Notes under the pieces: model-generated
Databases searched by the model: none
The model's input: the letters and a program-made list of their open reading frames with translations, nothing else
Told to the model about the DNA's origin: nothing
Part shown: positions 46,020 through 64,000 of the stretch, in pieces
How positions within the stretch are numbered: position 1 is the first letter of the stretch
Layout of the letters: each line of letters begins with the position of its first letter
Program-made: the position numbers and the translations under genes
Source of the DNA: Longimicrobiales bacterium
GTDB lineage: Bacteria > Gemmatimonadota > Gemmatimonadetes > Longimicrobiales > Gaopeijiaceae
Reading direction: 5' to 3'
Assembly (NCBI GenBank): GCA_963664435.2
Contig: CAXXKM010000003.1
Coordinates: 1,730,205-1,794,204 of the forward strand
DNA length: 64,000 bases

Positions 46020-46302
46020 GTGCAATGCCTCCGGTGCGTTCCCCCAAAATCTGGCGCGCAACGCCCGAAACCGCCACAACAAGGGGCTGGCAACGCAACT
46101 CGCGAGGGCATGGCGCCATGCACCCGTGAATCTCGCCGTTTCCAACGGGCGAGGCCATGGCGGAATGGGGCGAGGGGAACCCTCCCCCTTAGGCGGGGGA
46201 AACCGTTAACCCACCTGGATCCGTGGTTTTCCTCGACGGACGGGGGGACGACCCGCTCCGGCGGGCAACCTGCATACGAAGGCGAAAAGAGCGAGGTAGA
46301 CG

Positions 46303-46650
46303 ATGAAGGAAAGTTTTGCGATTCAGGAAGTTGGTGTCGCGCTGGCCAAGCTTGAGGGTCGTGTTGTCACCGGGTTCGATCAACTGAACGGACGGATCTC
46401 CGCATTGGAGTCGAAGCTCGCCACGCGGATCGAAGACGTGGAGGCACAGGCGGACAAACGGAGCGTGGGGTTCGAGAGCAAGGTCGACATGGTGTCGGCC
46501 AAGTTCAAGCAGGTTCGATACTCGCTGGACGGGCTGGAGGAGCGACTCGGCCAAAGGGTCGAGGGATTGGACACCAGAGTCCGGAAACAGCTCGGCGTTC
46601 TGCAAGCTGCGATCGACGCGATCGGCGCGCACTTCGCCAGTTCGACGTAG
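46303..46650 (+). CDS. 115-aa coiled-coil hypothetical protein (left copy)
   Basis: Heptad pattern; same-length paralog at 60638-60985. Confidence 0.75.
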   Translation: MKESFAIQEVGVALAKLEGRVVTGFDQLNGRISALESKLATRIEDVEAQADKRSVGFESKVDMVSAKFKQVRYSLDGLEERLGQRVEGLDTRVRKQLGVLQAAIDAIGAHFASST

Positions 46651-46655
46651 CCGGG

Positions 46656-46678
46656 GCTTCCTCCGGTCGAGAGGAAGC
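46656..46678 (+). terminator. Hairpin after the 115-aa gene
   Basis: gcttcctc-cggtcga-gaggaagc. Confidence 0.5.
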
Positions 46679-46741
46679 TGGCGGCGTGTCCGGCCCCGAA
46701 TGGTGCAAATCCCAAGACGTGATAACGGACAGGATACCAGG

Positions 46742-47893
46742 ATGGAGCGACCGAGGACGCTCAGCGCGAGTTTCGTCAAGACAGTCCGGCGGCCCGGCCG
46801 ATACGGAGACGGACGGGGAGGCTACGGGCTGTCGCTGCTGGTCAAGCCCACATCGACGGGACGGATCAGCAGGACGTGGGCGCAGCGCCTCTACATCAAC
46901 GGCAAGGCCGTGAACCTGGGTCTGGGCGCGTATCCGGTGGTGACGTTGAAGGAGGCGAGGGCCAAGGCGCTTGAGAATCGGCGAATGCTGGCGCGGGGGA
47001 TGGACCCCAGGAGCGGCGGCATGCCGACCTTCGCGCGAGCGGCCGAGAAGGTGATTGCGATCCACAGGGCGAACTGGAAGCCGGGTGGTGACACCGAGCA
47101 GCAGTGGAGGGCCAGCCTGCGCGATTATGTCCACCCGAAGATCGGGCACAAGACGGTGAACAAGATCACGACGACGGACGTGATGGCCGTCCTGCTGCCG
47201 ATCTGGAACGAGAAGCGGGTGACGGCGACGCGGGTGCGCAACAGGATTTCGGCGGTGATGAGGTGGGCCGTCGCGAAGGAGTACCGGGAGGGGAATCCGG
47301 CCGGCGACACCATCGCGGCCGCACTTCCCAAGAACGGGGTCCCCAAGGTCCACCATCGCGCATTGCCTCACGCCCAGGTCGCGCAGGCGCTGGCCAGAGT
47401 GCGTGCAAGCACGTCACAACCCACTACGAAACTGGCATTCGAGTTTCTCGTGCTCACCGCGTCCAGATCGGGCGAGGCCCGCAGTGCGAAATGGACCGAC
47501 ATCGACTTCAGGGCCGCCACATGGACCGTGCCGGGCATACGCATGAAGATGGGACGCGAGCATCGGGTGCCGTTGTCTTCACGTGCCCTCGAGGTGCTCG
47601 CCCAGGCGCGCCGGCGATGTAACGGATCCGACCTGGTATTCCCCTCTCCGGCAGGCCGCAAGCTGACCGGCAACACACTCTCTCAGCTCTGCCAACGGCT
47701 TGAGATCGCAGCGGTTCCGCACGGCTTCCGCTCCTCGTTCCGCGACTGGTGCGCCGAGCGCGGCGTACCCCGCGAGGTCGCCGAATCCGCGCTCGCGCAT
47801 GCGGTCAAGGGCGTCGAGGGAGCATACCTGCGAACCGACCTCTTCGAGCGGCGGCGAGAGGTCATGGAAGCGTGGGGTGACTACGTGCGGTGA
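46742..47893 (+). CDS. P4-like tyrosine integrase with arm-binding domain
   Basis: PGRYGDGRGGYGLSL and LGLGAYPVVTLKEAR (arm domain); TASRSGE (R), MKMGREHRVPLS, PHGFRSSFRDW (HxxR), LAH and AY catalytic residues all present. Confidence 0.92.
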   Translation: MERPRTLSASFVKTVRRPGRYGDGRGGYGLSLLVKPTSTGRISRTWAQRLYINGKAVNLGLGAYPVVTLKEARAKALENRRMLARGMDPRSGGMPTFARAAEKVIAIHRANWKPGGDTEQQWRASLRDYVHPKIGHKTVNKITTTDVMAVLLPIWNEKRVTATRVRNRISAVMRWAVAKEYREGNPAGDTIAAALPKNGVPKVHHRALPHAQVAQALARVRASTSQPTTKLAFEFLVLTASRSGEARSAKWTDIDFRAATWTVPGIRMKMGREHRVPLSSRALEVLAQARRRCNGSDLVFPSPAGRKLTGNTLSQLCQRLEIAAVPHGFRSSFRDWCAERGVPREVAESALAHAVKGVEGAYLRTDLFERRREVMEAWGDYVR

Positions 47894-47894
47894 C

Positions 47895-47990
47895 CGTGAG
47901 TCATATTCCAGGCGCATAACCATAGTGATAACAACACCGGCTATGCACTCATAACATACTGTTATATTGTGACTTATAAGTAGTTTGTGC
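47895..47990. mobile_element. Putative att/recombination site downstream of the integrase
   Basis: AT-rich tract with 12-bp-spaced ataac repeats (gcataac catagtgataac), also echoed upstream of int (gtgataac at ~46719); ends where surface-protein coding sequence begins. Confidence 0.5.
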
Positions 47991-50900
47991 CGGGGAGTAT
48001 ATCCGCTCGTCCGCAGTGGTCGGCAACGTGGTTGCGGCCGACGCCATGATGAGCGGCGGCGACGGCCAGCCCGAAACGCTGGCAGGCGTTACGGTCACGC
48101 TGGGCGGTGAGCACGCCATGGGCGAGACCATGGAGACCGACGAGACCGGCGGCTTCGCGTTCACCGGGCTCCGGGCCGGCACCTACACGGTCACGATCAG
48201 CGACTATCCGGAGGACGTCTCCTTCGAGACGGTGATGGTCGAGGTAGCGGTCGAGGTCGGCGATGTCGGCCAGGCCGACTTCACGGGCCACTTCATCCGC
48301 ACCTCCGCGGTCGAGGGCCAGGTGATCATCGAAGGCGAGGGCCTTGCTGGGGTGACGGTTACCCTGAGCGGCGGTCCCGCCGACGAGAGCTACACCATCA
48401 TGACCGACGCCGACGGCATGTACCGGTTCGAGGAATTGCGTCCCGGCGCCTACACGGTCTCGATCTCTGACTTCGACGCGCGCGACTACGAGTTCGCGTC
48501 CACGTCCCAAGACGTGAACGTGGATCTCGATGAGACCAGCACCGTGTCGTTCACCGGCGTCCTGCTCCGCACCTCCGGCATCAGCGGCCGGGTGAGCGTC
48601 GAGGGCATGGGCCTCGGCGAGATCACGGTCACGCTGGCGGGCGCGGACGACCGCACCGCGATGACCGACGCGGGCGGCCAGTACTCCTTCGCGGGCTTGG
48701 CGGCCGGCGACTACACGGTCTCGATCGCGGTCGACAGCGACGCCTACGTCTTCGAGTCGATGAGCACGGACGTGACGGTCGGCGACGACGAGTCGGCGAT
48801 CATTAACTTCGAGGGCGCGCACGCGCGCACCGCGAGCGTGTCCGGCATGGCGTACGTTGACGAGGCGACCAAGAACGACATGTTCGACGAGGGCGAGCAT
48901 CCGCTGGCGCACGCCGGTCTTCCGGTGGTGCTGGTGGGCCCGGGCGTCAACGAGCAGCGGGTGAGCCTCACCGACTCGACCGGCGCGTTCTCCTTCACAG
49001 GCCTCCGCGCCGGCCCGTACCAGTTGGTCGTGACCATCAACGCCACGGTCGCCGCGGCTCTCGCGGCCAACGACTTGGCTTACGGCGGACCCGGCGAGGG
49101 CTACGCGGTCGCCCTCGGTGTCGGCGAGGCTGTGACGCAGTCGGTTCCGTTCGACATCACGCACACCAGGGTCAACTTCACAGCCTCGCTGAGGAGCGGT
49201 GAAGAGATGGGTGCCGCGCTTCCCGGCGCGATCGTCGATTTCTTCTCGGACGCGGCCGGTGAGACCAAGATCGGCAGCGGCATGACCGGCGAAGAAGGCT
49301 CGGTGATGATCCGGGTCGCGCGCGCCGGCACCAGCGGCAACATGGTCCACGCGAGCGTCTCCGCCGACGGCTACCATGTGGCCGACGGCATGACGGTCGT
49401 GTCGTGGAACCCGCAGTACAACATGGCCGCGGGCGCCAACGAGAACGACATCGTCAACCTGAACGTCGACGTGGCCATCAGCGGTGCCACCGTCACCACC
49501 GAGTACGGTGGCGGCGACACGCTCGCCAACTGGGCCATCAGCGTCATGGCAGGCGAAGACTCGGTCGCAGGCGCGCCGGAGAAGCTGGACACAGCCGGCG
49601 TCGCCGCGTTCACGACCACCGTGGGAGCCGACGACCTGCCGGCGACCTTCACCATCGCCGTCGACGACGACCAGGCCAACACGCTGGACGGCGGCGAGAG
49701 CTACGACGGTGGCTCGGTCGAGTACACCCACACCGGCCTCATGCTGGCGGGCACCCAGAACGCCGACATGATCGAGGTGGCGTTCACGACCCAGACCCTC
49801 AAGGTCTACGTGCACCACGAGCTTGATCAAGTCGAAGGCTACACCGGCAACATCCTCGGCGGTGACGAGAGGGACGGTAAGGGCGCCGACCGCAAGGTCG
49901 ATGTCGACCTCCGCTACATCGACGACTCCGGACGCTCGCGCGCGTTCACGGCTGCGGACAGCATCAGCGAACCGAAAGACAATGGTGACGGCGGTGCGTG
50001 GGTCTTCAGCAACGTGCCGGCCGACATGAACGTGATCGCCAACGCGTCGAAGGCCGACAACACCGACCTCAGCATCATGATCCTCGATGAGGGCGGGCAT
50101 GCCGATGAGCTCGCCGCCTACACCGGCACGGATGCCAACGGCATCACCGGCGGCCACTTCGGTGCGCAGGGCGGCTACAGCCACACGGTTTCGCTCTGCC
50201 CGCTGCAGGACGAGAACCCGCAGGACCACGACGCTTGCTCGTCGTTCGCCTACGTCAGCACGCACTCGGTGAGCGGGCTGATCTGGAAGAACGTGGTCGT
50301 CAAGAGCACCGAGACTGCCAACGATGACAGATTCTCGTTCGGCAAGACCGACGGAGTCGACGTATATGATCCCGAGGGTGCCCCCCCCACGTTCGTAGCC
50401 GGCATTTCCGTCAGCCTGAGCCCGGTCGAGGGCAAGAATCTCGCGGGTGACGAGGAGTCCGCCACCACTACGGAGAAGCCGGTCCGGGGGCCGGGTGAGA
50501 CCGCCAAGGGCAATGAAGTGCTCGACGAGACCCACCAGTTCGCCTTCAACAACATCGCGGCCGGCGTCTACAAGGCCAGCGTGACGGACGGCTGGCGGGC
50601 GAGGCTGGGTCCGAAGGGCGCCACGGCCATGGTCGGCAACGCCTTCAACCCGCTCGCGGGTGACGTCTCACTCGACGTCACGCCGGCGACGACCACCGTC
50701 TACGGCTACGTGAAGGACGCGGAGGATTTCCCCGTGGACAGCGTGAACGTGAACGTGAACGGTGTTGTAGCGATGTCCGACGTACACGGCCGCTACATCG
50801 CGGAGTACGTGCCGAACGTGGCGAGCCGCAAAATCGGCACCGTGACGCACACGAACAGCGTCTTCGTCGAGACCGCCCATGGAGGAAGCGGGGAGACGCG

Positions 50901-52290
50901 GAACATCCAGGCCTTTGCCGCAAACAGCCGGATCCGGCAGGACGTCGATCTTTCGGGCGTAGGCACGATCGCCTCGATCAGCGGTACGGTCACCGCGTCC
51001 GGCAGCGGCGCGCCGATCGCCGGTGCGGAGATCAAGGTTGACGGCAATGCCCCGACCAACGCGGCCAAGACCGGTGCGAACAGGGGCAAGCTCGTGACGG
51101 GCGCCGACGGCACCTACACGGCAGAATTCGCGGCCAAGGACCTCGGCGAGAGCGCCGATGTGACCGTGTCGAAGGACGGCATGAGCTTCGCGCCTGCGAC
51201 GCTGTCTGTTCCGGCCCACGCCGGATCGGCGGTCTCGGGCATCAACTTCACCGGCTTCCAGCATGCGACGATTTCGGGCCGGGTGAGAGGTCCGGACGGC
51301 AACGCCATGGGTGGCGTTACGGTCACGGCCACGAACGTGGTCGCAGGCGCAGCCGGGGACGACGTCTTGAGCACCAGCAACGCGAGAGGCACCTTCGTGC
51401 TCAGCGTACCGTTCGGCGCCTATGACATCGAAGCGTCGTTGGCGAACCACAGCTTCAAGTATCCGAACGACAACCAGAGGGTGAGCGTCGCACCGGGTCA
51501 GAGCTTGAACTTCGGCGCGATCGAGGCGCTGTCGCCTGGGGCTAGGAACCTCAGCGCATCGCGTGCCCGCACGGAGGACGACGAGTCCACCGAGGACATC
51601 GACGAATCCGAACGCTACGATGGCAACATCAGCGTGAAGTTCGTCGACAGCGCCACGGACGTGCCCGAAGGGTTCACCAGCCCCGCCACGCACGAGGTGC
51701 AGCACAACTACACCGGCACCTTCACGGATGCGAGCGCAACCTTGGTGACGCGCGACAGCCTCGGCACTACGGTCAATGTCCCGGGCAGCTACACGTTCAC
51801 GTCGCCGGGCGATACCACCTTCATGGTTCGAGTGGTGACGTCGGTCGCACACCCCACCGATTCGGACCTTACCTTCACGATCGAATCCGATCCGGTCACG
51901 GTCGGCGCGGTCGATCCGTCGACCAGCGGTGTCACTGCGAGTCGTGCGGCGACTGCCGATACCACCGTTGCCGACACCCTCACCGTCACTTGGGACGCCG
52001 ATAGCAACACCAGTTCCGAGTTCCGGATCATGGTTGAGGTCGCCTCCGAAAACACTGGTTCGACTTTGTGGCTCGTCGCCTCAGGTGGAGAGCCCGCCAC
52101 CATCGCAAGCACCACCAGGAGTTGGAGCTTGGAGTGGATTCATGACTTCACCGCGAGCTGGAACACGGTGGGTGGAACGGCGATTGCGATCACGGACGTC
52201 GAACTCAACAAGCCGTTCAGAGTTCGCGTCGACTCGAGACAGGGCAGTGCTGGCGACTTCACCGAGGGTACGCCAGTAGATGTCCCATAA
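47989..52290 (+). CDS. Large Ig-like (Cna-B/SdrD-B/carboxypeptidase-regulatory-like) repeat surface protein, 5'-truncated
   Basis: Repeated GVTVTL.G...TD..G.Y.F..L..G.YTV.I modules. The frame opens mid-linker (AGEYIRSSAVVGNV) after TAA at 47977, with no signal peptide or RBS. Confidence 0.8.
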   Translation, partial: AGEYIRSSAVVGNVVAADAMMSGGDGQPETLAGVTVTLGGEHAMGETMETDETGGFAFTGLRAGTYTVTISDYPEDVSFETVMVEVAVEVGDVGQADFTGHFIRTSAVEGQVIIEGEGLAGVTVTLSGGPADESYTIMTDADGMYRFEELRPGAYTVSISDFDARDYEFASTSQDVNVDLDETSTVSFTGVLLRTSGISGRVSVEGMGLGEITVTLAGADDRTAMTDAGGQYSFAGLAAGDYTVSIAVDSDAYVFESMSTDVTVGDDESAIINFEGAHARTASVSGMAYVDEATKNDMFDEGEHPLAHAGLPVVLVGPGVNEQRVSLTDSTGAFSFTGLRAGPYQLVVTINATVAAALAANDLAYGGPGEGYAVALGVGEAVTQSVPFDITHTRVNFTASLRSGEEMGAALPGAIVDFFSDAAGETKIGSGMTGEEGSVMIRVARAGTSGNMVHASVSADGYHVADGMTVVSWNPQYNMAAGANENDIVNLNVDVAISGATVTTEYGGGDTLANWAISVMAGEDSVAGAPEKLDTAGVAAFTTTVGADDLPATFTIAVDDDQANTLDGGESYDGGSVEYTHTGLMLAGTQNADMIEVAFTTQTLKVYVHHELDQVEGYTGNILGGDERDGKGADRKVDVDLRYIDDSGRSRAFTAADSISEPKDNGDGGAWVFSNVPADMNVIANASKADNTDLSIMILDEGGHADELAAYTGTDANGITGGHFGAQGGYSHTVSLCPLQDENPQDHDACSSFAYVSTHSVSGLIWKNVVVKSTETANDDRFSFGKTDGVDVYDPEGAPPTFVAGISVSLSPVEGKNLAGDEESATTTEKPVRGPGETAKGNEVLDETHQFAFNNIAAGVYKASVTDGWRARLGPKGATAMVGNAFNPLAGDVSLDVTPATTTVYGYVKDAEDFPVDSVNVNVNGVVAMSDVHGRYIAEYVPNVASRKIGTVTHTNSVFVETAHGGSGETRNIQAFAANSRIRQDVDLSGVGTIASISGTVTASGSGAPIAGAEIKVDGNAPTNAAKTGANRGKLVTGADGTYTAEFAAKDLGESADVTVSKDGMSFAPATLSVPAHAGSAVSGINFTGFQHATISGRVRGPDGNAMGGVTVTATNVVAGAAGDDVLSTSNARGTFVLSVPFGAYDIEASLANHSFKYPNDNQRVSVAPGQSLNFGAIEALSPGARNLSASRARTEDDESTEDIDESERYDGNISVKFVDSATDVPEGFTSPATHEVQHNYTGTFTDASATLVTRDSLGTTVNVPGSYTFTSPGDTTFMVRVVTSVAHPTDSDLTFTIESDPVTVGAVDPSTSGVTASRAATADTTVADTLTVTWDADSNTSSEFRIMVEVASENTGSTLWLVASGGEPATIASTTRSWSLEWIHDFTASWNTVGGTAIAITDVELNKPFRVRVDSRQGSAGDFTEGTPVDVP

Positions 52291-52300
52291 CCCCTTCAAC

Positions 52301-52399
52301 ACCATCAGCCTGGCTGACTAACCGTCAGCCAGGCTGATGGTCGCAGGCCGCGGGACAGCGTCACCCCCCGTTCGGGACTCCCGAACGGGGGGTGACGCT
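52301..52399. terminator. Two long perfect hairpins between the surface-protein genes
   Basis: accatcagcctggctgac-taacc-gtcagccaggctgatggt (18 bp stem) and agcgtcaccccccgttcggga-c-tcccgaacggggggtgacgct (21 bp inverted repeat). Confidence 0.7.
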
Positions 52400-52464
52400 C
52401 ACCAGACGACCGGTAAGCAAATGACTATTCCACCGCGCATTTCACCTGACGCGGAGAAGGCACG

Positions 52465-55400
52465 ATGATTCCGAATCAGCCTGGCGTACCCGTCCGTTCC
52501 CTCTTGGCGGCCGCAGTGGTCTGCGCGCTCCTGGTTCCATCTGCGGGCGTACAGGCTGAGGAGCCATATGTGGGCGGTTCGCGTGCGGGCGTCCCGTCGG
52601 TTGTGGAATCCCCAGTGGCGAGCGACGTGGCCGTCCCCCCCACGACCTCGATTTCATGGAGTTGGATCGGGTCCACACAGAACTCTGCCAGCGTCGTCAT
52701 CCGTTTCTCGCAGAGCGTGACCGGCTTCACGGTCGACGACATCAACATCACGTGCACGCACCCGACCGCGGCGTGTGCAGTGGCCGATCCGCTGGACAGT
52801 GACGAAGGCAGGAGGTTTGTCGTCACGATGAGGATGCCGGAACAATATGACGGCCTGGTGTTCTTCCATATCCCTGGGAACGTGGTGCAGAACAGCTCGC
52901 AGGAGGGGAATACCCCGTCGAGAGTGGTCAACATCAACGTGGACACCAGGGGCCCTGTAGTCAGCGACGCGAAGGTCAACGGCGACGAAGTCGTCATCGC
53001 CTTCGACGAAGACCTCGATGAGGATTTCGTCCCATCGACCAGCTATTTCCAAGTCGCCTTCGGAAATAGCACCGTGTCACACGACGTCAAGACCGTGTCC
53101 CGGGTCGAAGTGGCCACCCGCGATGTGTTCCTGCTTCTGGCAAGCCCCGTCGATACGCTCGACGCGGTTCGGGTGTTCTACGACGACCGCGGCGCCGACG
53201 CGCTTCGGGATCTGGCCGGCAATCGCGCGTTCGGCTTCGACAGGGCGGTGCGAAACGTCACCGGGGAGGCGCGCACCGGGGTGCCCGGAGAGCCGCGCAA
53301 GCTCACGGCGGAGGCCGACGGCCCCGACGCGATCATACTGGAGTGGGAGGCGCCGAGTTCGAATGGCGGTCGCGAGATCACCGGGTACCTCATCGAGTGG
53401 TCGGAAGACGGCCGCGACCCGTGGTCGACTCTGGAGCGCAATACCCGGAACACCGACACCAGCTACCGCGACGACAAGGATCTCACCGGGGGCGTCACGC
53501 GGCACTACAGGGTGTCGGCCATCAACTTCAACGGGGCGGGTGACCCCTCGAACGTCGCCGACGCCACCACCGAGGATGTCCTGCCGGACGCGGCTCGGTC
53601 GTTGACGGCGCAGGCCCGGGGGATGTCCGCCATCGAACTGAGGTGGCGCGCCCCCTCCTCCAGCGGCTCGACGCCGGTCACCGGCTACCGCATCGAATGG
53701 TCGCGGGCCGGACGCAGCCCCTGGACGCGGCTCGAGGCCGACACCGAGTCCACGGCCACCACCTACACCGACGACGAGCTCAGCCCCGCCACCACGCGCC
53801 ACTACCGCGTAGCAGCGATCAACCGGGCGGGTCTGGGCCCGTGGTCCAACACCGCCCAGGCGACCACCGACGCCACCCCTCCGAGCCCGCCCATAGCACT
53901 GAGCGTGGTTCCGGGCGCGAGGAGAACCGACGAACTCCTCCTCACCTGGTCCGCCCCGCCCGACGACGGCGGCAGCCCGATCACCGGCTACCGCATCGAG
54001 AGGTCCGCCACCGGCGGCGGCGGCTGGATCATCCATGTGCCCGGCACGGGCAGCACGGCCACCATCTACACCGACAGCAATCTCGGCCCCGCCGCCACCT
54101 GGTTCTATCGCGTGTCCGCGATCAACGGCGTGGGTACGGGACGCGCCTCCAACGTGGCCCAAGGCACCACCGATGCGGCGCCTCCCGGGCAGCCGCAGAA
54201 CGTACGCGCCCGCGGAACGGGACCGAACAGCGTCCTCCTCGTCTGGGACCGGCCGGAGAGCGACGGAGGGGCGCGCATCACCGGCTACAGCATCCGGATG
54301 CTCGGGCCCAACGATCGCTCCTGGATCATCATCCGTCCCAACACGGAGGAGACGACAACGACCTTTACGCACACCGGGCTTGACCCAGTGACCCGGTACC
54401 AGTACCAGGTCGCGGCCATCAACCGCGTGGGCGCCGGGCAGTGGTCGCTCACGGGGGCGGCCCTCACGCACGCGGACTTCGCCGCGGCCCCGACTGGGCT
54501 GACGGCCCGGGCAGTCGGCACCTCGCGCATCGACCTGTCGTGGAACGCGCCGCGCTACACCGGCGGCGTCTCGATCTTCGGCTACCGCGTCGAGGCCTCC
54601 GACGACGAGGGCGCGACCTGGAACATCATCCGCCGCAACACGAACTCGGCGACGACGGCGTTCTCGGACGTGAACCTGAGGCCCGCAACCACCCGCCACT
54701 ACCGGGTCGCCGCCATCAACCTCGCGGGGGTGGGGCCGTTCTCGAACGTGGCGCGGGCGACCACCGAGGCGACTGTTCCGAGCGTGCCGCGACGTCTCAA
54801 CGCCGATGCGGCCGGCACCTCGCAGATCGTCCTCTCCTGGCAGGCACCCGCGGACGACGGGGGCGCCCGCATCACCGGCTACCGCATCGAGGTCACGGCC
54901 GACGGGGGCGGGAGCTGGGAGGACTTGGTGGCCGCCACGCGCAGCACGGCCACCGTCTACACGCACAGCGGGCTGGCGCCGGCCTCGACGCGCCATTACC
55001 GCGTCTCGGCGATCAACCGGATCGGCGTGGGCAACGCGTCGCGGGTCGCGGGCTCCACCACGGACGCGACGGTGCCCGACGCGCCCACCGGGCTGGTCGC
55101 CACCGATGTCTCGCCCACCCAGATCGACCTGTTCTGGCTCGCGCCCGACTACAATGGCGGTGCGCCCATCACCGGGTACCGCATCGAGGTGTCGGAGACG
55201 GGCGCCGCCTGGGCGGACCTGGTCACCAACACCGAGTCCACGGTTGCCACCTTTTCGCATACCGCCCTGCAGCCGGGCAGCGTGCGCCACTACCGGGTGT
55301 CGGCGATCAACCGGGCGGGCACCGGCGCGGCGTCTGCGAGCGCAACGGCGGCGACCGACGACCCCGTGCAGCGGGCGGGCCGGCTCAACACCCGCGTCCT

Positions 55401-56763
55401 GCCGCAGGTGGCCGCGGCGATGACCTCGAGCACCGTCTCGGCGATCGCAAACCGCGTCAACGCGGTGGCCAACGGGATGGGCATGGAGCAGAGCGTGGAG
55501 ACGAACGGACTGTCGTCGATGGCCGCGAGCCTGTCCGCGCCGGGTCCGGGCGGCCTCGGCCTCGGCCAGAATGACGGCGCCGGCTTGGCCGCCCTATTCG
55601 GCGGCACCTCATTCCTGATGCCGTTCGGCACCCCGGACGCGCCGCAGCAGTCCGCGACCGGCATGCAGATGGCGAGCTGGGGTGCGGGCGAGTACCACTA
55701 CATGGGCGAACCCGGCGCGAGCGAGCTCGACTGGAAGGGCAACATGGTGAGCGCCCACGTCGGCGTGGACATGCGCGTGGGGCCGGACATCCTGGCGGGT
55801 GTCGCGGGCTCGTACAACTCGGGCTCCTTCGACTTCACCGACAAGACCGGCGCCCGACCGGTGGCCGGCACCTACGGCACCACCATGACCAGCGCGCATC
55901 CTTACGTGGCCTGGTTCCCCGGCGCGCGCGGCGCCTCGGTGTGGGGTTCGGCCGGGATCGGCCGGGGCGACATCGAGGTCGACGACGAGCGGGAAGGGCT
56001 CCGCACCAGCCCCGCCAGCATGATGACGGGGGCGGGAGGCGCGAGCTACCAGCTGTTCACGAGCGGCATCGGTGGCGTGAGCCTCAAGGCCGAGGGCTGG
56101 AGCGGCCGGTTCGAGGTCGAGGGCACCGAGCAGATCGGCACGGTGACGCTCGACATGCAGCGCGCCAAGCTTGCCCTTGAGTTGACGCAAGGCTTCCGCA
56201 CCGACACGGGGCAGGAGATGGCGTTCGTGCTCGAGGGCGGGATGCGCTACGACAACGGCGACGGCATCAACGGCACCAGCGCGGAGGTCGGCGGCGGGCT
56301 CCGCTACACGAACTCCGGGCTGGGATTGACCGCGGAGGGCCGCGGCCGGTTCGTCATCTCGGCGCGCCAAGGCTACGAGGAATGGGGCCTCGGCGGCATG
56401 CTCATGTTCGACCCGGCGGCCCCGGGCCAGGGGCTGCAGGTCCGGGTGGCGCCCGCGTACGGCGACCACAGGAGCGGGGTCAACCAGCTCTGGGAGCGCG
56501 GGGTGTCCGACGCGGTGGGCGGCCAGGACCTGGGCATGGGCCCCAACGTGGACGGCGAAGTGGCCTACGGCATCGCCGGCTTCCAGGGGACGCCCTACAG
56601 CGGCTTCTACCTCGGCAAGAGCGGGACGCGCGCCTTCTCGAGCGGCGTGCGCTACGATCTGGGCGCGGGGGTCGGGCTGCGGCTGGAAGGCACGCGGCGC
56701 GAGAGCGCGCTGGGTGCGGCCCAGCACTCGGTGGGCGTCCGCGGACGGATCAAGCTCCGGTAG
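52465..56763 (+). CDS. Fibronectin type III repeat autotransporter-like adhesin
   Basis: Signal peptide, Ig-like and SwmB-like modules, 7 FN3 repeats (WxAP..GG..ITGYRIE...TRHYRVSAIN..G), C-terminal beta-barrel-like domain (GMRYDNGDG, EVGGGLRY, YEEWG). Confidence 0.85.
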   Translation: MIPNQPGVPVRSLLAAAVVCALLVPSAGVQAEEPYVGGSRAGVPSVVESPVASDVAVPPTTSISWSWIGSTQNSASVVIRFSQSVTGFTVDDINITCTHPTAACAVADPLDSDEGRRFVVTMRMPEQYDGLVFFHIPGNVVQNSSQEGNTPSRVVNINVDTRGPVVSDAKVNGDEVVIAFDEDLDEDFVPSTSYFQVAFGNSTVSHDVKTVSRVEVATRDVFLLLASPVDTLDAVRVFYDDRGADALRDLAGNRAFGFDRAVRNVTGEARTGVPGEPRKLTAEADGPDAIILEWEAPSSNGGREITGYLIEWSEDGRDPWSTLERNTRNTDTSYRDDKDLTGGVTRHYRVSAINFNGAGDPSNVADATTEDVLPDAARSLTAQARGMSAIELRWRAPSSSGSTPVTGYRIEWSRAGRSPWTRLEADTESTATTYTDDELSPATTRHYRVAAINRAGLGPWSNTAQATTDATPPSPPIALSVVPGARRTDELLLTWSAPPDDGGSPITGYRIERSATGGGGWIIHVPGTGSTATIYTDSNLGPAATWFYRVSAINGVGTGRASNVAQGTTDAAPPGQPQNVRARGTGPNSVLLVWDRPESDGGARITGYSIRMLGPNDRSWIIIRPNTEETTTTFTHTGLDPVTRYQYQVAAINRVGAGQWSLTGAALTHADFAAAPTGLTARAVGTSRIDLSWNAPRYTGGVSIFGYRVEASDDEGATWNIIRRNTNSATTAFSDVNLRPATTRHYRVAAINLAGVGPFSNVARATTEATVPSVPRRLNADAAGTSQIVLSWQAPADDGGARITGYRIEVTADGGGSWEDLVAATRSTATVYTHSGLAPASTRHYRVSAINRIGVGNASRVAGSTTDATVPDAPTGLVATDVSPTQIDLFWLAPDYNGGAPITGYRIEVSETGAAWADLVTNTESTVATFSHTALQPGSVRHYRVSAINRAGTGAASASATAATDDPVQRAGRLNTRVLPQVAAAMTSSTVSAIANRVNAVANGMGMEQSVETNGLSSMAASLSAPGPGGLGLGQNDGAGLAALFGGTSFLMPFGTPDAPQQSATGMQMASWGAGEYHYMGEPGASELDWKGNMVSAHVGVDMRVGPDILAGVAGSYNSGSFDFTDKTGARPVAGTYGTTMTSAHPYVAWFPGARGASVWGSAGIGRGDIEVDDEREGLRTSPASMMTGAGGASYQLFTSGIGGVSLKAEGWSGRFEVEGTEQIGTVTLDMQRAKLALELTQGFRTDTGQEMAFVLEGGMRYDNGDGINGTSAEVGGGLRYTNSGLGLTAEGRGRFVISARQGYEEWGLGGMLMFDPAAPGQGLQVRVAPAYGDHRSGVNQLWERGVSDAVGGQDLGMGPNVDGEVAYGIAGFQGTPYSGFYLGKSGTRAFSSGVRYDLGAGVGLRLEGTRRESALGAAQHSVGVRGRIKLR

Positions 56764-56779
56764 GGGAGGGAGGAGCGTC

Positions 56780-57862
56780 ATGGCGACCAAGCGGCCGACC
56801 GCGCCCGGCGCGCGCGCGGCCCGGCCGAACGGGGAAGCGCGCTACGTCGGCTGGCAGTGCCGCCTGTACCCGAACCGGCCGCAGGCGCGCCTGCTCGCCC
56901 TGTGCCGGGAGGGGCTCCGCGAGCTGTCGAACGCCCTGCTCGGCGCCTCGAACCTGCAGTATTCCCAGACGGGCCGGCACATGACCGGCAAGGAGTTCCG
57001 CGCGGCCGCCCAGGACTGGTGGCGCCGCAGGCCGAACCGCGACCCGTTCCCGTCCACCGCCATCTACCAGATCGCGACCGACATGCACGGAGCGTTCCGC
57101 AACTGGCACACCAAGCCACGCGCGCGCCAGGGGCTGCCGAGGTTCAAGCCCGAGGGACGCGCCCCCGGGATCTACGTGGCCAGCCACGGCACCCGCTTCG
57201 ACGGCAACCGCGTCCGCTTGCCGAAGTTCGGCTGGATGCGCTGGCTGGGCGGGAGCCTGCCCGCTGGCCGGCTCGAGGGCCCGAAGAGCCGCACGACGCT
57301 CGGCATGGTGTACGGCCGGGTCTGGCGCGACGCCGGCGAGCGCTGGATGTTCTCGTGCGTGTTCGAGTGCGGCCCGGTCGATGCCGCCGCGCCCACGGCG
57401 GAGGTCGCCGTGGTGCGCCAGGACGGCCCGGGCATCGCCGTCGAACTCGACGGCAGGCCCATCGAAGTCCCGGGACCGGACGAGCGCTCCGACGCCGACA
57501 GGCAGCGGATGAGGCGGCTCCAGCGCCGCTTGAGCCGCTGCACCGAAGACTCGAAGCGGCGGGCCCGCGTTCTCGAACGGTTCCGCAATGTCGCCAGGAA
57601 CATCAGGAACCGCGAGCGCGACCGCCACCACAAGCTCACCACCATCGTCGTCCTCGCCGCCGGCACGATCATCGTCGAGGGCGTCAGCAGCGAGATGCTG
57701 CGCCAGCTCGAGTACAAGGCCCGTTGGCACGGGCGCCAACTGCAGGTACGGCGAGGCCCGCCGGAACCGGAGGCGCGCAAGCGCCCCGAACGCGCGCGGA
57801 GACCGGTAACTCCGGTCCGGTCCGTGAAGCGCGAATCGTCGAACGAAGGCCGGAGAGTTTGA
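56780..57862 (+). CDS. TnpB-derived protein, predicted nuclease-dead (TldR-like)
   Basis: RLYPNRPQ, AFRNW..GLPRFK, VRLPKFGWMR, RRLQRRLSR, HHKLTT, IIVEG and RQLEYKARWHG motifs. RuvC-I Asp is replaced; the zinc finger and RuvC-III are absent. AGGAG RBS. Confidence 0.8.
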   Translation: MATKRPTAPGARAARPNGEARYVGWQCRLYPNRPQARLLALCREGLRELSNALLGASNLQYSQTGRHMTGKEFRAAAQDWWRRRPNRDPFPSTAIYQIATDMHGAFRNWHTKPRARQGLPRFKPEGRAPGIYVASHGTRFDGNRVRLPKFGWMRWLGGSLPAGRLEGPKSRTTLGMVYGRVWRDAGERWMFSCVFECGPVDAAAPTAEVAVVRQDGPGIAVELDGRPIEVPGPDERSDADRQRMRRLQRRLSRCTEDSKRRARVLERFRNVARNIRNRERDRHHKLTTIVVLAAGTIIVEGVSSEMLRQLEYKARWHGRQLQVRRGPPEPEARKRPERARRPVTPVRSVKRESSNEGRRV

Positions 57863-57920
57863 GTTCGCCGAAGGCCGGAACCGACTCAATACCCGCCGGA
57901 CGGGCCCAACCGGCCCGTCC
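57750..57920 (+). ncRNA. Putative omegaRNA/guide RNA overlapping the tnpB-like 3' end
   Basis: gtgaagcgcgaatc (SVKRES, resembling the typical TnpB SxKQE tail), ggaaccg end, 14 unique nt, then a 9-bp hairpin. Boundaries are approximate. Confidence 0.45.
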
Positions 57921-58403
57921 CGCGCGACCACCACCACGACGAGGAGGCACCCACCAGCCCCGGCTCACGCAACCTGCGCGGCGCGGCTCTCGAAGTTTCC
58001 CGCCGGCCGGGTGGCGCGGTTACCGAACGTTCACGGATCCACCGTGGACACCAAAGTGCGGCGCCCGTCAGCCACGCAGTCAGCGACCCGCAGGGTGATC
58101 GACCCGCCGCCCTCCGACGGTCCCATCTCGCACGCGCCCCGGAGTGGCAACGTCGCTGGACGCGGGCAGGAGCATACGACCGGCTCCGGTTGGCCCCGGC
58201 GGATCGATACGGCAGAGAGGTTTGGGCGCGCTACGCGTGGTTCCGACGACGTGCCGAACCTGATCACTCGATCCGGTCGTCTGTTTCCTTCTCCCACCGG
58301 CCCTTGTCCCGGCGGCGCCGCCGTTGTTTCCGTGGCTTGCGCGACGGACGTTGCCCCACCCTCCGCTTCGGCGGCTTCCGTCCCTTGGGTGGGCGCCACT
58401 TCT

Positions 58404-58759
58404 TCACGCCGTCTTCCCGGCGGAGGCTCCGCGCCGACCCGCCTTCTCCAAGCAGCGGACGACCGACGTGGCCACGGTCTCGGCGTACCCGGCGTCCGGA
58501 GCTGTCCGTGCGTGCCTGAACCAGAGTTCTGCCGGGGTCTTCATGCCGCTCCTGGCCTGCCGCGCTGCCGCGCCAAGACCACGTCCAGGGATTCCAGCGC
58601 GGCACCGTGGTCCTGGTTTTGGACCAGCCGATCGGCACGCACGACGTTGCGGTCGTTTCGGATGTCGGGGGGGAGTTCCTCGCCTGCCGCCACCGTTGGT
58701 CCCGCTACAATGGCAAGACCCAACGCCGTCCCGGCCATCCACGAATTCGATCTGCTCAT
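58404..58759 (-). pseudogene. Frameshifted remnant of a secreted helical (TPR-like) protein
   Basis: Signal peptide plus ELPPDIRNDRNVVRADRLV..GAALESLD in one frame, continuing TPAELWFRHAR..VVRCLEKAGRRG in another. Confidence 0.55.
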
Positions 58760-58819
58760 GATTGCCGTCTCCCCGTCCCCTGGGTCGTGCAGCGCGGCCA
58801 CAATGCACCGGGGCCGTTG

Positions 58820-59065
58820 GGGTTGTCAACTTCGGCGGCTTCCCGCGGGCCACGAACGCCTCGTACTCGTGCTTCAGGACGGGATTGTGCCGAACCAAGG
58901 CCATCGCGCGCAATGCAAAGCAGCCGGCGCACCCGATGCCTGCCGCCCTGGATGAAGCTCCGTCCCCTTCAGTTTCCGGACTCCCGGGCTGACCGGGGCG
59001 AGTCCGGCGAGGCTGGCGGCACGCGGCCGGTGAGCATGCCCGGTTCTGTGATGTCGGCATCGACC
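58820..59065 (-). pseudogene. IS110 family transposase C-terminal remnant
   Basis: Fragments across frames: ASLAGLAPV, RESGN*RGRSFIQGGRHRVRRLL and VRHNPVLKHEYEAFVARGKPPKL. Confidence 0.7.
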
Positions 59066-59088
59066 GCAGGGCGAGCGTGTACAGCGAA

Positions 59089-59304
59089 TTACTTGTACCG
59101 ATACGTGATGCGGCCCTTCGACAGATCGTAGGGGGACATCTCGCATCTCACCCGGTCGCCCTCCAACACCCGGATGTAGTGCTGGCGCATCTTGCCGGAG
59201 AGATATGTGTGGATCTCGTGGCCGTTCTCCAGCCGGACCCGAAAGGTGGCGTTGGGCAGGACTTCGATGACCGCCCCTTCGATTTCGATCGCCTGTTTCG
59301 CCAT
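59089..59304 (-). CDS. infA: Translation initiation factor IF-1
   Basis: [69 protein letters not shown]. Confidence 0.95.
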
Positions 59305-60637
59305 GAACGGCCCTCCTTATCGTGGCCGAGGAGGCGCCACGTCCGTCCAACCTCCGGGACGCGATGCCGTCGCGCAAGCGGCGCGGGGCCGACCGGCGGG
59401 CTGCGGAGAGGGCGGGGAGGAGGCACGGCCCGGGGGGTGGACGATGCGCGAGCAGTGCTCGGCGGGGGCAGCGGCTCAGCAAGTATGTGAACGGGATGGG
59501 GCAGATGAGAGGGTGCCGCTCAAGTATGTGCCCACGCGAAGGCTGCCCACTTCCTGGTCTCTCCCAGCGCCAGACGTTTGCTCCGCGAGACAAGTCACGA
59601 AGCGTTCCCGCCTGATGGCCGACAGTGCGGGAGTCAAGCGACCGGCACGAAGGCGATTCGTGGAAAAATGGGGTCAACGGCGTGGGAAACCTCCGCTGCG
59701 TTGTTGAAAAACGATCCGTGATTCGTCGTTCGCCTCGCGGAGGTCAGGCGGAGATCCCGCTCGTGACGTCACCAGCGCACGGCGAGGACCGAGGAAACAT
59801 TGGCGCGCCAAGCCCATAGGGGATCGGTGCCGACCTTCCAAGTCGCCATGCGAAAGACCGGATATCCCGCCAGCACGGTTGCATCGTCCTCGCTGGCCGG
59901 ATCCGCCTCCGGCCCCTCCAGGAGGGGAGGAACCCGTCCCCGTCCCCGACGCTCTGGAGGACTACTGTAGTGCCGTGCGGGATGCCTTCAAGGACGTTCC
60001 GGGGCTCGCGGGTCACTCGAATCCGCGTGCGGTTCATTCAGTGCGCGTCGGGCATCGCGACCGTGAGCGGTGACGACCGCTCGTTGGCGGGTTCGCTCAC
60101 GCGCGGCTGCGACTTCTTCTTCGGTGGACCCGCAGCATCGCGCCGCAATATGAACCCCGCGTGAGGGCTGCCAAAGACATGGTGCGCAATTCGGAACGGA
60201 CGAAGTAGGGATGCGATTGTGTCGACGCGGTCAATCGAGCCGCCTTCCAGAGCTACGCCGAGTCTCCCCTCTTCCCCTGTCAACTCGAGGGCTCGGCGCG
60301 CGCCCGCGCTCGATGGTGCTCGAACTCGCATCCGCGCCGATGAAGGGTGCAAGTGATCGCCCCGCACTCGCGGCAGCGGCCCGTCGCGTCATTCCGGCAG
60401 AAGCGCGTCCCGCTGCCATCTCTTGCGCGGCACATCCTCGCGGCAACGCGGGCACACAGCGCGCTCAGCGCCGCCGGCGTCCGGAATTGCCGAAGACCTC
60501 CGTGGTTGGACCTCCGCAGTCGGCGCACTGCACGGCCTCGGCCTGGACATGGCAATAGCTCACGTCGCGGAACTCGTCATTCGTCCCGATCGCGCATCCT
60601 GGCCAAATGGTCGATCATCAGGATAGGAGAACCTCGA

Positions 60638-60985
60638 CTACTGCGAACTGACGAAGTGCGCGCCGATCGCGTCGACCGCGGCTTGTAGAGCGCCGAGCTG
60701 TTTGTGGACCTCGGTGTCCAATCCGTCGACCCTCTTGCCGAGGCGGTCCTCCAGCCCGTCGAGCGAGTATCGAATCTGCTTGAACTTGGCTGACACCATT
60801 TCAATCCTGCTCCCGAGCTCGACGTTCCCTTTGTGCGCGTGCGCCTCCACGTCGTCGATCCGCGAGCCGAGCTTCGATTCCAATGCGGAGATCCGTCCGT
60901 TCAGTTGATCGAACCCGGTGACGACGCGACGCTCAAGCTTGACCAGCGCGACACCCAGCTCCTGAATCGCGAAACTGTCCTTCAT
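60638..60985 (-). CDS. 115-aa coiled-coil hypothetical protein (right, inverted copy)
   Basis: About 27 substitutions versus 46303-46650 by manual count. Confidence 0.75.
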   Translation of the reverse strand: MKDSFAIQELGVALVKLERRVVTGFDQLNGRISALESKLGSRIDDVEAHAHKGNVELGSRIEMVSAKFKQIRYSLDGLEDRLGKRVDGLDTEVHKQLGALQAAVDAIGAHFVSSQ

Positions 60986-61229
60986 TGTTTATCTCGCTCT
61001 TTCGTCCCGCATGCGCATTGACCGCCCCTACACGGTCCCCGTCCGTCAAGGGAAACCATGGCATCCAGCGGGTCAACCAAGGCGCTCGCGCCTCGATTCG
61101 ATGCTCACCCGGATGATCCGTTCCGCCGCCATGGCGCTGATTGCCTTCCATGTGTGATCACCGTCCCTGGGAATCGGTCGGGACGCCATGGGCGCGCCGC
61201 ATCCTAGACCTCCCACCACCGTCGCCGGT

Positions 61230-61410
61230 CTACGATCCTCCGGTCGTGCGATGCTGTGCGATCAACCGCGTAAGTTGGGCGCGGGAGAACCCGGTGCCCC
61301 GTTGGAGCAGTGCCTTGATCTTCGACTTCTCTTTCTTGCGGAGACCGTGGTAGCCGGTTCGGTCCAGCACCTTCGCAATGAACATGTAGCGCGCTCCCCT
61401 GGTCTTTGTG
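61230..61410 (-). pseudogene. N-terminal fragment of an integrase-core (ISNCY/IS1202-like) transposase
   Basis: RYMFIAKVL..GYHGLRKKEKSKIK..LQRGTGFSRAQLTRLIAQHRTTG followed by a stop. Confidence 0.5.
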
Positions 61411-61989
61411 TTCACGCTTCCTCCCCGTCGGTCTGCCGAGATCTCTTCGCCTCCAAAGTGGAGGGCCTCAGAGAGTCCTTCTGGTGCTACCGCCACCAAG
61501 AGCAAGAACCGCACCAGCGTCAAACGCGACTGGGACGGATGCTGCGCGCAAGGATCACGCCACCCCGGCGAGTGGGTGCTCTCATCCGCGGGCTCGAGGA
61601 TGAGCCGGGCGAGGGCCTTCCACTCCGGCCTGGTGACCGCGCTGTACGCCAGGGGTCTGAATTCGGGACCCTTGACCGCTCTCTTGTGGCGAACGCCGGG
61701 CGAGCGCGTCGCCTCATCCCTGCGTTAACCCTAGGCCCGTCGGACCTCCGCCTGCGGCCCAGAAAGGTCGACAGCGTATGCGCGTTTCGGCACCGGCGTT
61801 CCGGGACGCGACACCCGGTGGTCAAGAATCGAAGTAGCCGCCGTTCGGATGCTCGCCATTTGTTTGCCATTTTCCGGCTTTTTCGGTACGCTGAAGCAGA
61901 TGTGGTGTCTCGGCAAGAAGCGCAGATCGTGCAGTCCTGATTGAACTTAGACGATTTATTGCCGCGAATCACCCGGCCCCAGAGTTCCT

Positions 61990-62031
61990 CTTACAAGCAG
62001 GAGGTCGGCGGTTCGAATCCGTCAGCGCCCA
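61990..62031 (+). tRNA. 3' fragment of tRNA-Val(TAC), probable att site; not an intact tRNA
   Basis: CTTACAA loop, gcaggaggtc, T-arm ggcgg-TTCGAAT-ccgtc and acceptor agcgccca. The 5' half and the 5' anticodon-stem strand are missing. Confidence 0.8.
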
Positions 62032-62145
62032 TGGCCGGGGGGGGCACGAGGTTCCGCAATCGCTCCATTCCGTGTATCCTGTCTTGTCGTTCCGTCGGAT
62101 GGGGCAGTCCGTGGAGTCTCGTGCACCCACAACGCAGGAGATGTA

Positions 62146-62439
62146 ATGAACAAGAAGGAAATGGCGGCCGCTCTCGCGCAGCAGGCCAACCTCTCCAGGC
62201 GAAGGCAGCCGATGTCCTCAACTGCATCTTCGACACAAGTGCCGGATCGGGCATTATCGCCGGCGAACTCGACGCGGGGGGCAAGGTGACGGTCCCCGGC
62301 TTCGGCAGCTTCGGCGTCAAGTCGCGTGCGGCGCGTATCGGACCAACCGGCGACCGGCGAAAAGATCACCATCGCGGCGAAGAAGTACGCGTACTTCAAG
62401 CCCGGAAAGCCGTTGCGGGACCGCATCGCAGGGGGATAG
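62146..62439 (+). CDS. hup: HU DNA-binding protein (frameshifted in this assembly)
   Basis: MNKKEMAAALAQQANLS / QAKAADVL..KVTVPGFGSFGVKSRAARIG / PATGEKITIAAKKYAYFKPGKPLRD; needs 2-3 single-base corrections. Confidence 0.85.
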
Positions 62440-62615
62440 ATCCTCGAACGCAGCTGTACGCAGTACGGAGAGCATTCCGGCGCGCCCGGGCGTGGCCGGG
62501 CCGCGGGGCCCGCGATTCCGGCCGACCCGTGCCCAGGTGGCCTGATCCATAACCCGCCGGCGCGCCGGATGCTCACTCCCACTCCTCAACGCTCAGGACC
62601 CTGGTCGACCGAAAC

Positions 62616-64000
62616 GTGAATCCTCCGCCCCCTCGCGGTCGAGTCCGCGGGCGATTCGCGCGCCAACGAGCCGCCGGCGAGCGGGGTCACCCGCTGGGCC
62701 AAGGTCATCGACCATTCCCGGTGCATCGGCTGTCATGCCTGCACCACCGCCTGCAAGTCCGAAAACGAAGTCCCGCTGGGCGTTACCCGCACCTACGTCA
62801 AGTACGTCGATGCCGGCGAGTTCCCGCGGACCCGCCGGGCCTTCCAGGTAACCCGGTGCAACCAGTGCGAGGACGCGCCGTGCGTGACGGCCTGTCCCAC
62901 CTCGGCCATGTACCGCCGGTCCGACGGGATCGTGGACTTCGACAAGGAGGCGTGCATCGGCTGCAAGGCCTGCATCGCCGCCTGCCCCTACGACGCCTCT
63001 TCATCAACCCCGAAGACCATTCCGCGGAGAAGTGCAACTTCTGCGCGCACCGGCTGGACATGGGGCTCGAGCCGGCTTGCGTCGTGGTGTGTCCCACGGA
63101 AGCGATTCTGGTCGGGGACCTGGGCGATCCGCTTGCCAAGGTGACCCGGATGGTGCACGAGGACGCGCTCACGGTCCGGCGCCCCGAGAAGGAGACCCGC
63201 CCGAAGCTCTTCTACAAGGACGCGCGCCAGGTGACTCTGGACCGCTGGCGGCGGCACGGCCCGAGGGGGGGCTCTTCATGTGGAGCGAGCAGGGAAGCGG
63301 GGCCGACCAGGTGACATCGGGCCACCCGGGCCGGAGCAACTCCTCCGCGGGCGCGATCCTGAGCTACGACGTGCCCCACAGCGCTCCCTGGGACGCGCGC
63401 GTCAGCCTCTACACCTGGACGAAGTCGATCGCCGCCGGAGCCTATCTGGCGCCCCTGCTGCTGATCCTCTTCGGGGCGCTCTCGTGACGGACCCGCTCTG
63501 GCTCTTCGGCGCCCCGCTGCTGGCGATGGTGTTCCTGGTGCTGACCACGGGCCTTCTGATCTGGGACCTGGAGCATCCCGGCCGCTTTCACTACATCCTC
63601 CTGCGGCCGCAGTGGCGAAGTTGGCTGGTGCGCGGGGGCGTGGTGCTGACGGGCTTCGGGGCCGTGCTGGCGGCCCATCTGGGGGCGGCCTGGGCGGAGC
63701 CCCCGGGATCGCCCGCGTGCTGGCCCTGGCCGGAGGACCGCTGGCCGCGATGACGGCGGTGTATACGGCCTACCTGTTCGCCCAGGCGAAAGCCCGCGAC
63801 CTGTGGCAGAATCCCCTGCTTCCGCCCCACTTCCTGGTCCAGGCGCTGCTCGCGGGAGCGGCCGCCGTCCATCCTCTGGCGGCGCCGGGGCAGCGTCCGT
63901 TGCTGGCGGGAGCCTTCGCGGCCCTCACCGCCGCCCACCTCCTGCTGGTCCTGGGCGAGATCACCATCACGCACGGCACCGCGCACGCGCACCTGGCCGT
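62616..64000 (+). CDS. NrfC/DmsB-like 4x[4Fe-4S] protein fused to an NrfD/PsrC-like membrane domain (frameshifted, runs off the window)
   Basis: CIGCHACTTAC, CNQCEDAPCVTACP, CIGCKACIAACP and KCNFC..PACVVVCP motifs; YTWTKSIAAG, DLEHPGRF..RPQWRSWLVRG and YTAYLFAQAKARDLW in shifting frames. Confidence 0.8.

Follow-up and report, generated by a model that had tools for sequence, protein, structure and literature searches.

What does a nuclease-dead TnpB do as the last gene of a surface-protein operon? The question is raised by P0001, a small protein encoded behind an autotransporter gene in the window (the whole stretch of 64,000 nucleotides that was analysed), for which the original prediction proposed a domesticated RNA-guided regulator linked to surface adhesins.

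A nuclease-dead TnpB clade in surface-protein cassettes

P0001, its start and its neighbours lie as follows.

46700..47893, + strand: tyrosine integrase (Pfam Phage_int_M, Phage_integrase, Arm-DNA-bind_3)
47989..52290, + strand: IgLP, a 5'-truncated copy of a gene for a surface lipoprotein of ~1550 aa with Ig/CarboxypepD_reg repeats
52465..56763, + strand: FN3-repeat autotransporter with seven fn3 stretches and an Autotransporter domain (E 5.6e-6)
56765..56775, + strand: ribosome-binding site GGAGGGAGGAG, read from the sequence
56780..57862, + strand: P0001, nuclease-dead minimal TnpB (TldR-like), 360 aa
57416..57418, + strand: R213 at the position of the RuvC-I catalytic Asp, from pairwise alignment to P0041

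Re-reading the sequence recovered everything that had been listed for the gene: an uninterrupted ORF of 360 aa, TnpB-type motifs, and a start 16 bp after the autotransporter stop at 56763 that is preceded by its own ribosome-binding site. The relationship to TnpB was upheld by profile models and by structure: P0001 matched the TnpB model PF01385 (E 3e-7), reached E 4.8e-21 against NF040570, yet below the cut-off of that model, and gave a confident AlphaFold2 model, folded over about residues 20-326 (about 310 aa), with ISDra2 TnpB (8h1j) as the top fold match (E 4.3e-21). As first read, the RuvC-I Asp is replaced by Arg, R213 standing opposite the Asp of the intact relative P0041, and the zinc finger and RuvC-III are missing with the reading frame kept, so that at least two of the RuvC D-E-D residues are lost; a further 19-aa segment directly after E300, absent from the earlier account, is also deleted in frame. 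The RuvC-II Glu reported as retained does align in P0001 (E300, against P0041) but is not invariant across the clade. The DNA-binding REC/WED part is conserved. By contrast, the 'SVKRES' tail is not a protein motif; it is translated RNA scaffold, the DNA being conserved while the frame shifts. In P0001 the tail has a pLDDT below 50, and many homologs carry frameshifts or truncations in it.

In a FastTree tree of 121 proteins, the dead proteins formed one clade of 45 members (support 99), six of them longer forms and 39 minimal, and the RuvC-I Asp was present in 0/45. The clade is nested among intact D-E-D TnpBs, its sister rows are intact and its decay is stepwise, and the same in-frame deletions are retained across genera. 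A dN/dS below 1 had been suggested as a check, and the median was 0.34 (range 0.14-0.66; 694 pairs of 39 genes, by a simple counting method on high-GC DNA with the RNA overlap excluded). Of the four copies in the source genome, two are identical and belong to a 16-kb duplication, and the other two (group 2) are 52% identical to them. Relatives were present in 15/18 other genomes of the genus; a sample of 150 genomes of the family gave none in other genera at E 1e-40, but further Gemmatimonadota MAGs beyond the genus set have them, some of these records bearing other taxon labels. The close relatives with names are Candidatus Palauibacter, which we take to be sponge symbionts, in agreement with the library label of the RNA data. 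The absence of an adjacent TnpA extends to the whole genome (96% complete), in which no Y1 transposase, serine recombinase, resolvase or zinc-finger-bearing TnpB was found.

The IgLP gene, whose family is the one matched by the guides described below, heads the operon upstream of the autotransporter. DNA ending near 47988 replaces the promoter and the first ~115 codons of the window gene, which is cut at 47989 beside the integrase, so that the window operon has lost its promoter. The intact twin (L034) is whole at C3:1146330, with the junction to the intact copy at C3:1145985, and has a sigma54-type promoter and a start without a guide site. The motif TGGCAY-N5-TTGC, which we read as a sigma54-type promoter, lies upstream of 47/59 IgLP starts. 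The expectation of conserved linkage held for surface-protein genes in general, since 43/46 repressor loci have an IgLP, autotransporter or LRR gene within the fetched DNA (our own gene caller; loci partly redundant; L085, an intact-type relative, excluded) and the other three all end at contig edges. This conserved link to non-transposon genes accompanies the lack of TnpA. Placement behind an autotransporter, however, is a feature of one subfamily only, the window type (group 1); group 2 genes are divergent from IgLP, behind an AraC-like HTH gene to which they are translationally coupled and which has no counterpart beside the window-type copies, and the full-length dead forms lie upstream of IgLP.

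Several other features of these loci were observed. The 16-kb duplication is inverted and 99.87% identical (window 47989-64000 and G000:C3:1129957-1145985), reaches the contig end, and could be either a real repeat or an assembly artefact. A small gene in two inverted copies, 83% identical (46205-46656 and 60632-61077), flanks the integrase-IgLP-autotransporter-repressor block. The AraC-like HTH gene (L037:7027-7884) and its orthologs encode ~280 aa, have no Pfam hit and fall in Gemmatimonadota atlas clusters. Many cassettes have integrases and conjugation genes at their flanks, and such genes also interrupt IgLP genes: G010 has one that is broken near codon 9, with a direct repeat of 9 bp (L038:6035-6065, L298:7650-7660), and whose 5' part lies against an integrase and a trb conjugation cluster, suggesting that IgLP genes may be integration sites.

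The guide RNA and its putative target site

The 3' end of the gene contains the following RNA elements.

57740..57893, + strand: omegaRNA-like guide RNA over the last ~40 codons, conserved as DNA across frameshifts and present in RNA-seq contigs
57755..57758, + strand: hairpin-loop GGCC, predicted 5' strand of a pseudoknot, from loop/3' motif covariation
57854..57868, + strand: guide-like segment 1, AGAGTTTGAGT..., after the first GAAGGCCG unit and antisense to IgLP codons 3-7
57879..57893, + strand: guide 2, (G)AACCGACTCAA..., after the second GAAGGCCG unit and in the same sense as the IgLP start

The predicted omegaRNA-like tail was borne out both by this DNA-level conservation and by sponge metatranscriptome contigs that run from 57740 to 57893 and from 57742 to 57893 with no mismatch, indicating an RNA of ~150 nt expressed at the 3' end of the gene. 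Contigs of four RNA runs were mapped, and two of the runs yielded window-RNA contigs, which show neither strand nor level; the contigs derive from two study codes with at least one data set in common (X1 = X2). Paralog-type contigs had depths of 611 and 90, one of them running into adapter two bases past TCAA, and one low-depth contig (runs X1 and X2, with identical tables) stops at 57868. Contigs cover just 57708-57893 of the gene, the uncovered remainder of the ORF says nothing on expression level, and mRNA cover is too sparse for comparing paralogs.

Pairing between the hairpin loop and the 3' GAAGGCCG motif was pseudoknot-compatible in 49/51 parsed copies (GGCC/GGCC 38, GGCC/GGUC 5, GGCA/UGCC 4, GGCG/UGCC 2), with one compensatory event. 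The single-sequence fold was not significant (z-score -1.0), RNAalifold did not recover the pseudoknot and found few compensatory pairs (4/33), and the sole match of an Rfam search was a chance miRNA. In ISDra2, as given in the part of PMC10097598 used here, the guide follows three bases after the end of the pseudoknot core, and this spacing places the terminal guide at 57879-57893, with a start that is uncertain within 57878-57881. A guide beginning after the terminal TCAA/TCAG (57890 onward) was discarded, as its genome matches were at chance level and the contigs end 2-4 nt later; TCAA was also rejected as a transposon end, because the conserved end acts as guide and stem and there is no transposase.

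The 12-mer GAACCGACTCAA (57878-57889), with which the conserved part of the RNA ends, had a single non-self match in the 4.5 Mb genome, where 0.18-0.21 would be expected, and that match is the start codon of an IgLP paralog at C1:913503. Across the genus there were 34 matches in 14/19 genomes; the 30 examined comprised 10 RNAs, 17 IgLP start codons and 3 others, so that 17/20 non-RNA matches were IgLP starts. When the 3' ends of other genes were compared with four paralog start windows, 22/3328 reached 12 nt and 5 reached 13 nt; reversed-pattern controls were near zero, and are weak because word frequencies are skewed. Guide and target also covary: targets with AGA at Arg3 go with guides xAGACTCAA (xAGAC for CCGAC) in G062, G063, G064 and G009, while a second G063 copy retains the other guide. 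The G066 guides match their targets at just 7-8/12, and no IgLP target was found in the fragmented assemblies G065 and G018; a 12-nt match in G065 falls in an amidohydrolase-like gene and was set aside as probably due to chance. Elsewhere, in L134 (G012) and L139 (G014), an unrelated gene has TGAA plus a 10-nt match to the window guide in its leader, a possible off-target.

The IgLP genes beside the repressors lack the site. Its seed occurred in 0/10 IgLP starts beside group 1 or full-length repressors versus 42/48 others, in a set of 58 distinct starts that are not independent and partly share descent, the latter fraction being inflated because many IgLP loci had been retrieved by the guide pattern or by a query containing the seed. 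Near autotransporter starts the seed was found in 0/17. The earlier suggestion of a link to competing surface proteins was correct in that the conserved guide matches the 5' region of related genes, the IgLP paralogs, but not in naming the FN3 autotransporter as the partner. By register, the candidate TAM is ..CATG/..GTTG or WTGAA (..ATGAA); no intact transposon relative with ends was obtained. Guide 2 is oriented like the guides that gave repression in 5'-UTR assays of TldRs, as presented in the portion of 10.1101/2023.11.30.569447 considered here, and published accounts provide precedents for 9-11-nt guides and for targets downstream of the TSS. Full-length dead members gave no clean target past a 6-nt seed, and a search for their targets by 10-mer was abandoned because the 10-mer is too common.

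Segment 1 and guide 2 address the same IgLP site on opposite strands. The three best non-self 11-nt genome matches of segment 1 (57854-57864) are all IgLP starts; six of its bases are accounted for by pairing with guide 2, and the remainder tracks the target (segment/target pairs GAGAG/CTCTTC in the window, GGGAG/CTCCTT in G007 and GAGTAG/CTACTC in other genomes). The 3' GAAGGCCG unit is duplicated together with its guide, and three units are found in L057, L074 and L086; in G009, the two segments are on separate RNAs, with the antisense segment alone behind the gene. Group 2 shows the same convergent geometry. Its guide has a 13-nt match, on the opposite strand, in the 5' UTR of a conserved paralog without a repressor on its contig, and the site occurs in 0/30 IgLPs with a repressor nearby versus 13/28 without; the 11-mer alone is unspecific, IgLP leaders making up 4/15 of the non-RNA matches examined. 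Group 2 segment 1 matches at 7-8/12 and may be a mere anti-guide stem.

Probable repression of rival cassettes and other readings

We consider it probable that P0001 is a domesticated, nuclease-dead TnpB of the TldR type that acts as an RNA-guided repressor and silences rival surface-lipoprotein cassettes. P0001 would bind the ~150-nt RNA from its own 3' end, and at the start codon of IgLP paralogs the 3'-terminal guide would pair with the template strand, the TAM side (..CATG or ..ATGAA) facing the sigma54-type promoter of these genes. By analogy with TldR biology, the bound RNP is predicted to form a TAM-dependent R-loop and to block the elongating RNA polymerase as a roadblock. The lipoprotein gene of the own cassette would escape through its different start, a difference that is visible in the sequence, and the group 2 guide would address the 5' UTR of the conserved paralog that lacks its own repressor. 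The resulting hierarchy among lipoprotein-autotransporter cassettes may set which surface protein the symbiont displays. Two complete genomes keep 21 and 7 IgLP genes and no such repressor was found in them (G006, with 21 paralogs, has no dead TnpB of the P0001 family), indicating that the system is unnecessary for keeping paralogs.

If the RNP acted on mRNA instead, the antisense segments (window segment 1 and the group 2 main guide) would prevent translation by pairing with the leader or the first codons of the IgLP mRNA, and the protein would be an RNA chaperone. In a comparison with 3331 called gene leaders, the terminal 16 nt of group 2 give their best duplex energy with the core IgLP leader; the rank of window segment 1 is 14-20, the antisense segments tolerate G-U-type changes and share no TAM, and the lone antisense segment in G009 fits the same scheme. 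Moreover, the main guide of group 2 is oriented in the way that gave no repression when a TldR was assayed on a 5' UTR, according to the part of 10.1101/2023.11.30.569447 drawn on, which keeps mRNA pairing a rival. The terminal guide of the window, however, is sense and cannot pair with mRNA, still covaries with its target, and belongs to a protein whose DNA-binding part is conserved, and we regard this explanation as unlikely.

A very unlikely reading, in our judgement, is that guided DNA binding serves activation or recombination, with the AraC-like protein as a partner or with integrases directed into IgLPs. It would account for the translational coupling in group 2 and for the integrases and conjugation genes that flank cassettes and split IgLPs, but window-type copies have no AraC-like partner, the targets lie downstream of the promoter, and the lack of sites in own-cassette genes fits the silencing of rivals. 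We find it highly improbable that the locus is a decaying IS200/IS605 remnant in a recombination hot spot whose guide matches are old insertion footprints. Although a frameshift or an inserted IS disrupts some clade copies (G005), mobile elements abound at the loci and dN/dS is not very low, a remnant of this kind is at odds with the shared in-frame deletions, the missing transposase, the abundant RNA, the two target sites and a guide-target covariation that falls at a synonymous position.

The target genes themselves show a further pattern. In seven genomes, eight IgLP genes have an identical CGA->TGA stop at codon 3 in frames that are otherwise open (1500-1800 codons): G000:C2:13002, G000:C2:54970, G002:C34, G003:C374, G004:C2, G007:C29, G010:C1 and G011:C25. 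Two of the four target paralogs of the source genome carry it. In the repressor-less paralog, the stop was present in 5/7 genomes with a matching guide RNA and 0/6 without, G009 (AGA) being excluded and guide absence being judged in partly incomplete assemblies. The stops are scattered over the tree of the upstream DNA, and one group 2 IgLP of G002 has the stop with no matching guide found. The pattern would be compatible with deamination of the displaced strand as well as with the loss of a gene that is silenced. A more speculative joint reading, which we hold only tentatively and as a whole consider doubtful, combines tandem guides for the two strands, a tiered rivalry of cassettes and an R-loop footprint at codon 3. 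Two guides would converge on one 17-18-bp site with an overlap of 5-6 bp, a geometry that would have arisen for two targets; they would compensate for the lost C-terminal domains or give two RNP forms; and the C-to-T stop at codon 3 would have arisen repeatedly, mostly in genomes with a matching guide.

Relation to known systems

At the level of sequence, the clade has the attributes of a TldR (dead RuvC, no TnpA, an RNA and a guide match), from which DNA binding and repression are predicted, and the best reading is a new TldR clade outside the fliC, oppF and csrA clades: these three genes were absent among the recurring annotated neighbours, and the described TldR clades were not matched. An active IS200/IS605 or IS607 element does not correspond to what was found, as there is no TnpA, the TnpB is not intact and the guide is fixed across the genus; nor does a type V CRISPR system (Cas12m/dCas12f-like), as two to three short units lie in one RNA and all address one site.

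The fliC_P-associated TldR of Wiegand et al. (10.1101/2023.11.30.569447) is likewise a nuclease-dead TnpB beside a surface-protein gene without TnpA, has a guide that matches a paralog elsewhere, and spares its own copy through TAM/seed changes. In contrast, P0001 belongs to another TnpB lineage and phylum, its partners are an Ig-repeat lipoprotein and an autotransporter, the predicted target of its clade, behind a sigma54-type promoter, is the start codon or the 5' UTR, repressor subfamilies that differ in their guides occur together in one genome, tandem guide units are present, and a prophage location was not seen. With the oppF-associated TldR, in the sections of 10.64898/2026.09.22.753285 compared, P0001 shares its position as last operon gene, a short guide, C-terminal decay, a target downstream of the TSS and, apparently, the tuning of a paralog family. 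That TldR represses oppA of its own locus, whereas the IgLP neighbour of P0001 has no site, and the segment after the RuvC-II Glu is deleted in P0001 by comparison. ISDra2 TnpB (8h1j; PMC10097598, as excerpted) shares the fold, an omegaRNA over the ORF 3' end and a pseudoknot before a ~16-nt guide; P0001 differs in lacking the RuvC-I Asp, the zinc finger/RuvC-III and a transposase, and in its fixed guide.

The literature searched gave no description of the P0001 clade, of its partner, of TnpB with Gemmatimonad and sponge, or of a tandem omegaRNA. The terms Gemmatimonad, Palauibacter and Longimicrob are absent from five supplementary files of PMC10705468 and one of PMC10691335; the larger PMC10691335 data and the supplements of 10.64898/2026.09.22.753285 could list the clade. 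The system would be a fourth natural TldR regulon, with none described for this phylum in that literature, and would give a sponge symbiont a means of selecting from its many large Ig/FN3 surface proteins. Because the guide, target, escape sequence and covariation can be read from the sequence, it is directly testable in E. coli, and, with a folded part of ~310 aa, the protein is a candidate programmable repressor of very small size.

The tandem two-guide RNA may illustrate an early step from omegaRNA to array, or recognition of two strands by a TnpB. The omegaRNA arrays of sigma-TnpB and the Cas12 arrays from duplicated omegaRNA segments, in the part of PMC10691335 referred to, likewise involve an inactive TnpB-family protein; here only the 3' GAAGGCCG unit and guide are duplicated (2-3 copies), there is no sigma factor, and the two guides are directed at opposite strands of one site. 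The dual-spacer guides of TIGR-Tas, to the extent that PMC12045711 was drawn on, share the idea of one RNA with two segments for both DNA strands, but the protein is unrelated, and the segments here overlap by 5-6 bp and complement each other, dual pairing being hypothetical. As in the sigma-TnpB/Cas12 array systems (PMC10691335, same part), stand-alone omegaRNAs occur here too: L034:13926-13812 and 13711-13598 (- strand), L043:3552-3697 and 5308-5371, and L046:14998-14923 (- strand). These copies lie upstream of IgLP or repressor genes and carry their own guides. The guide of the copy lying upstream of the intact cassette has a 12-nt match in the source genome, at the start codon of G000:C1:893433, which encodes a TonB-dependent receptor, and 9-nt matches at window-type IgLP starts in three other genomes; most of its matches in the genus are unrelated.
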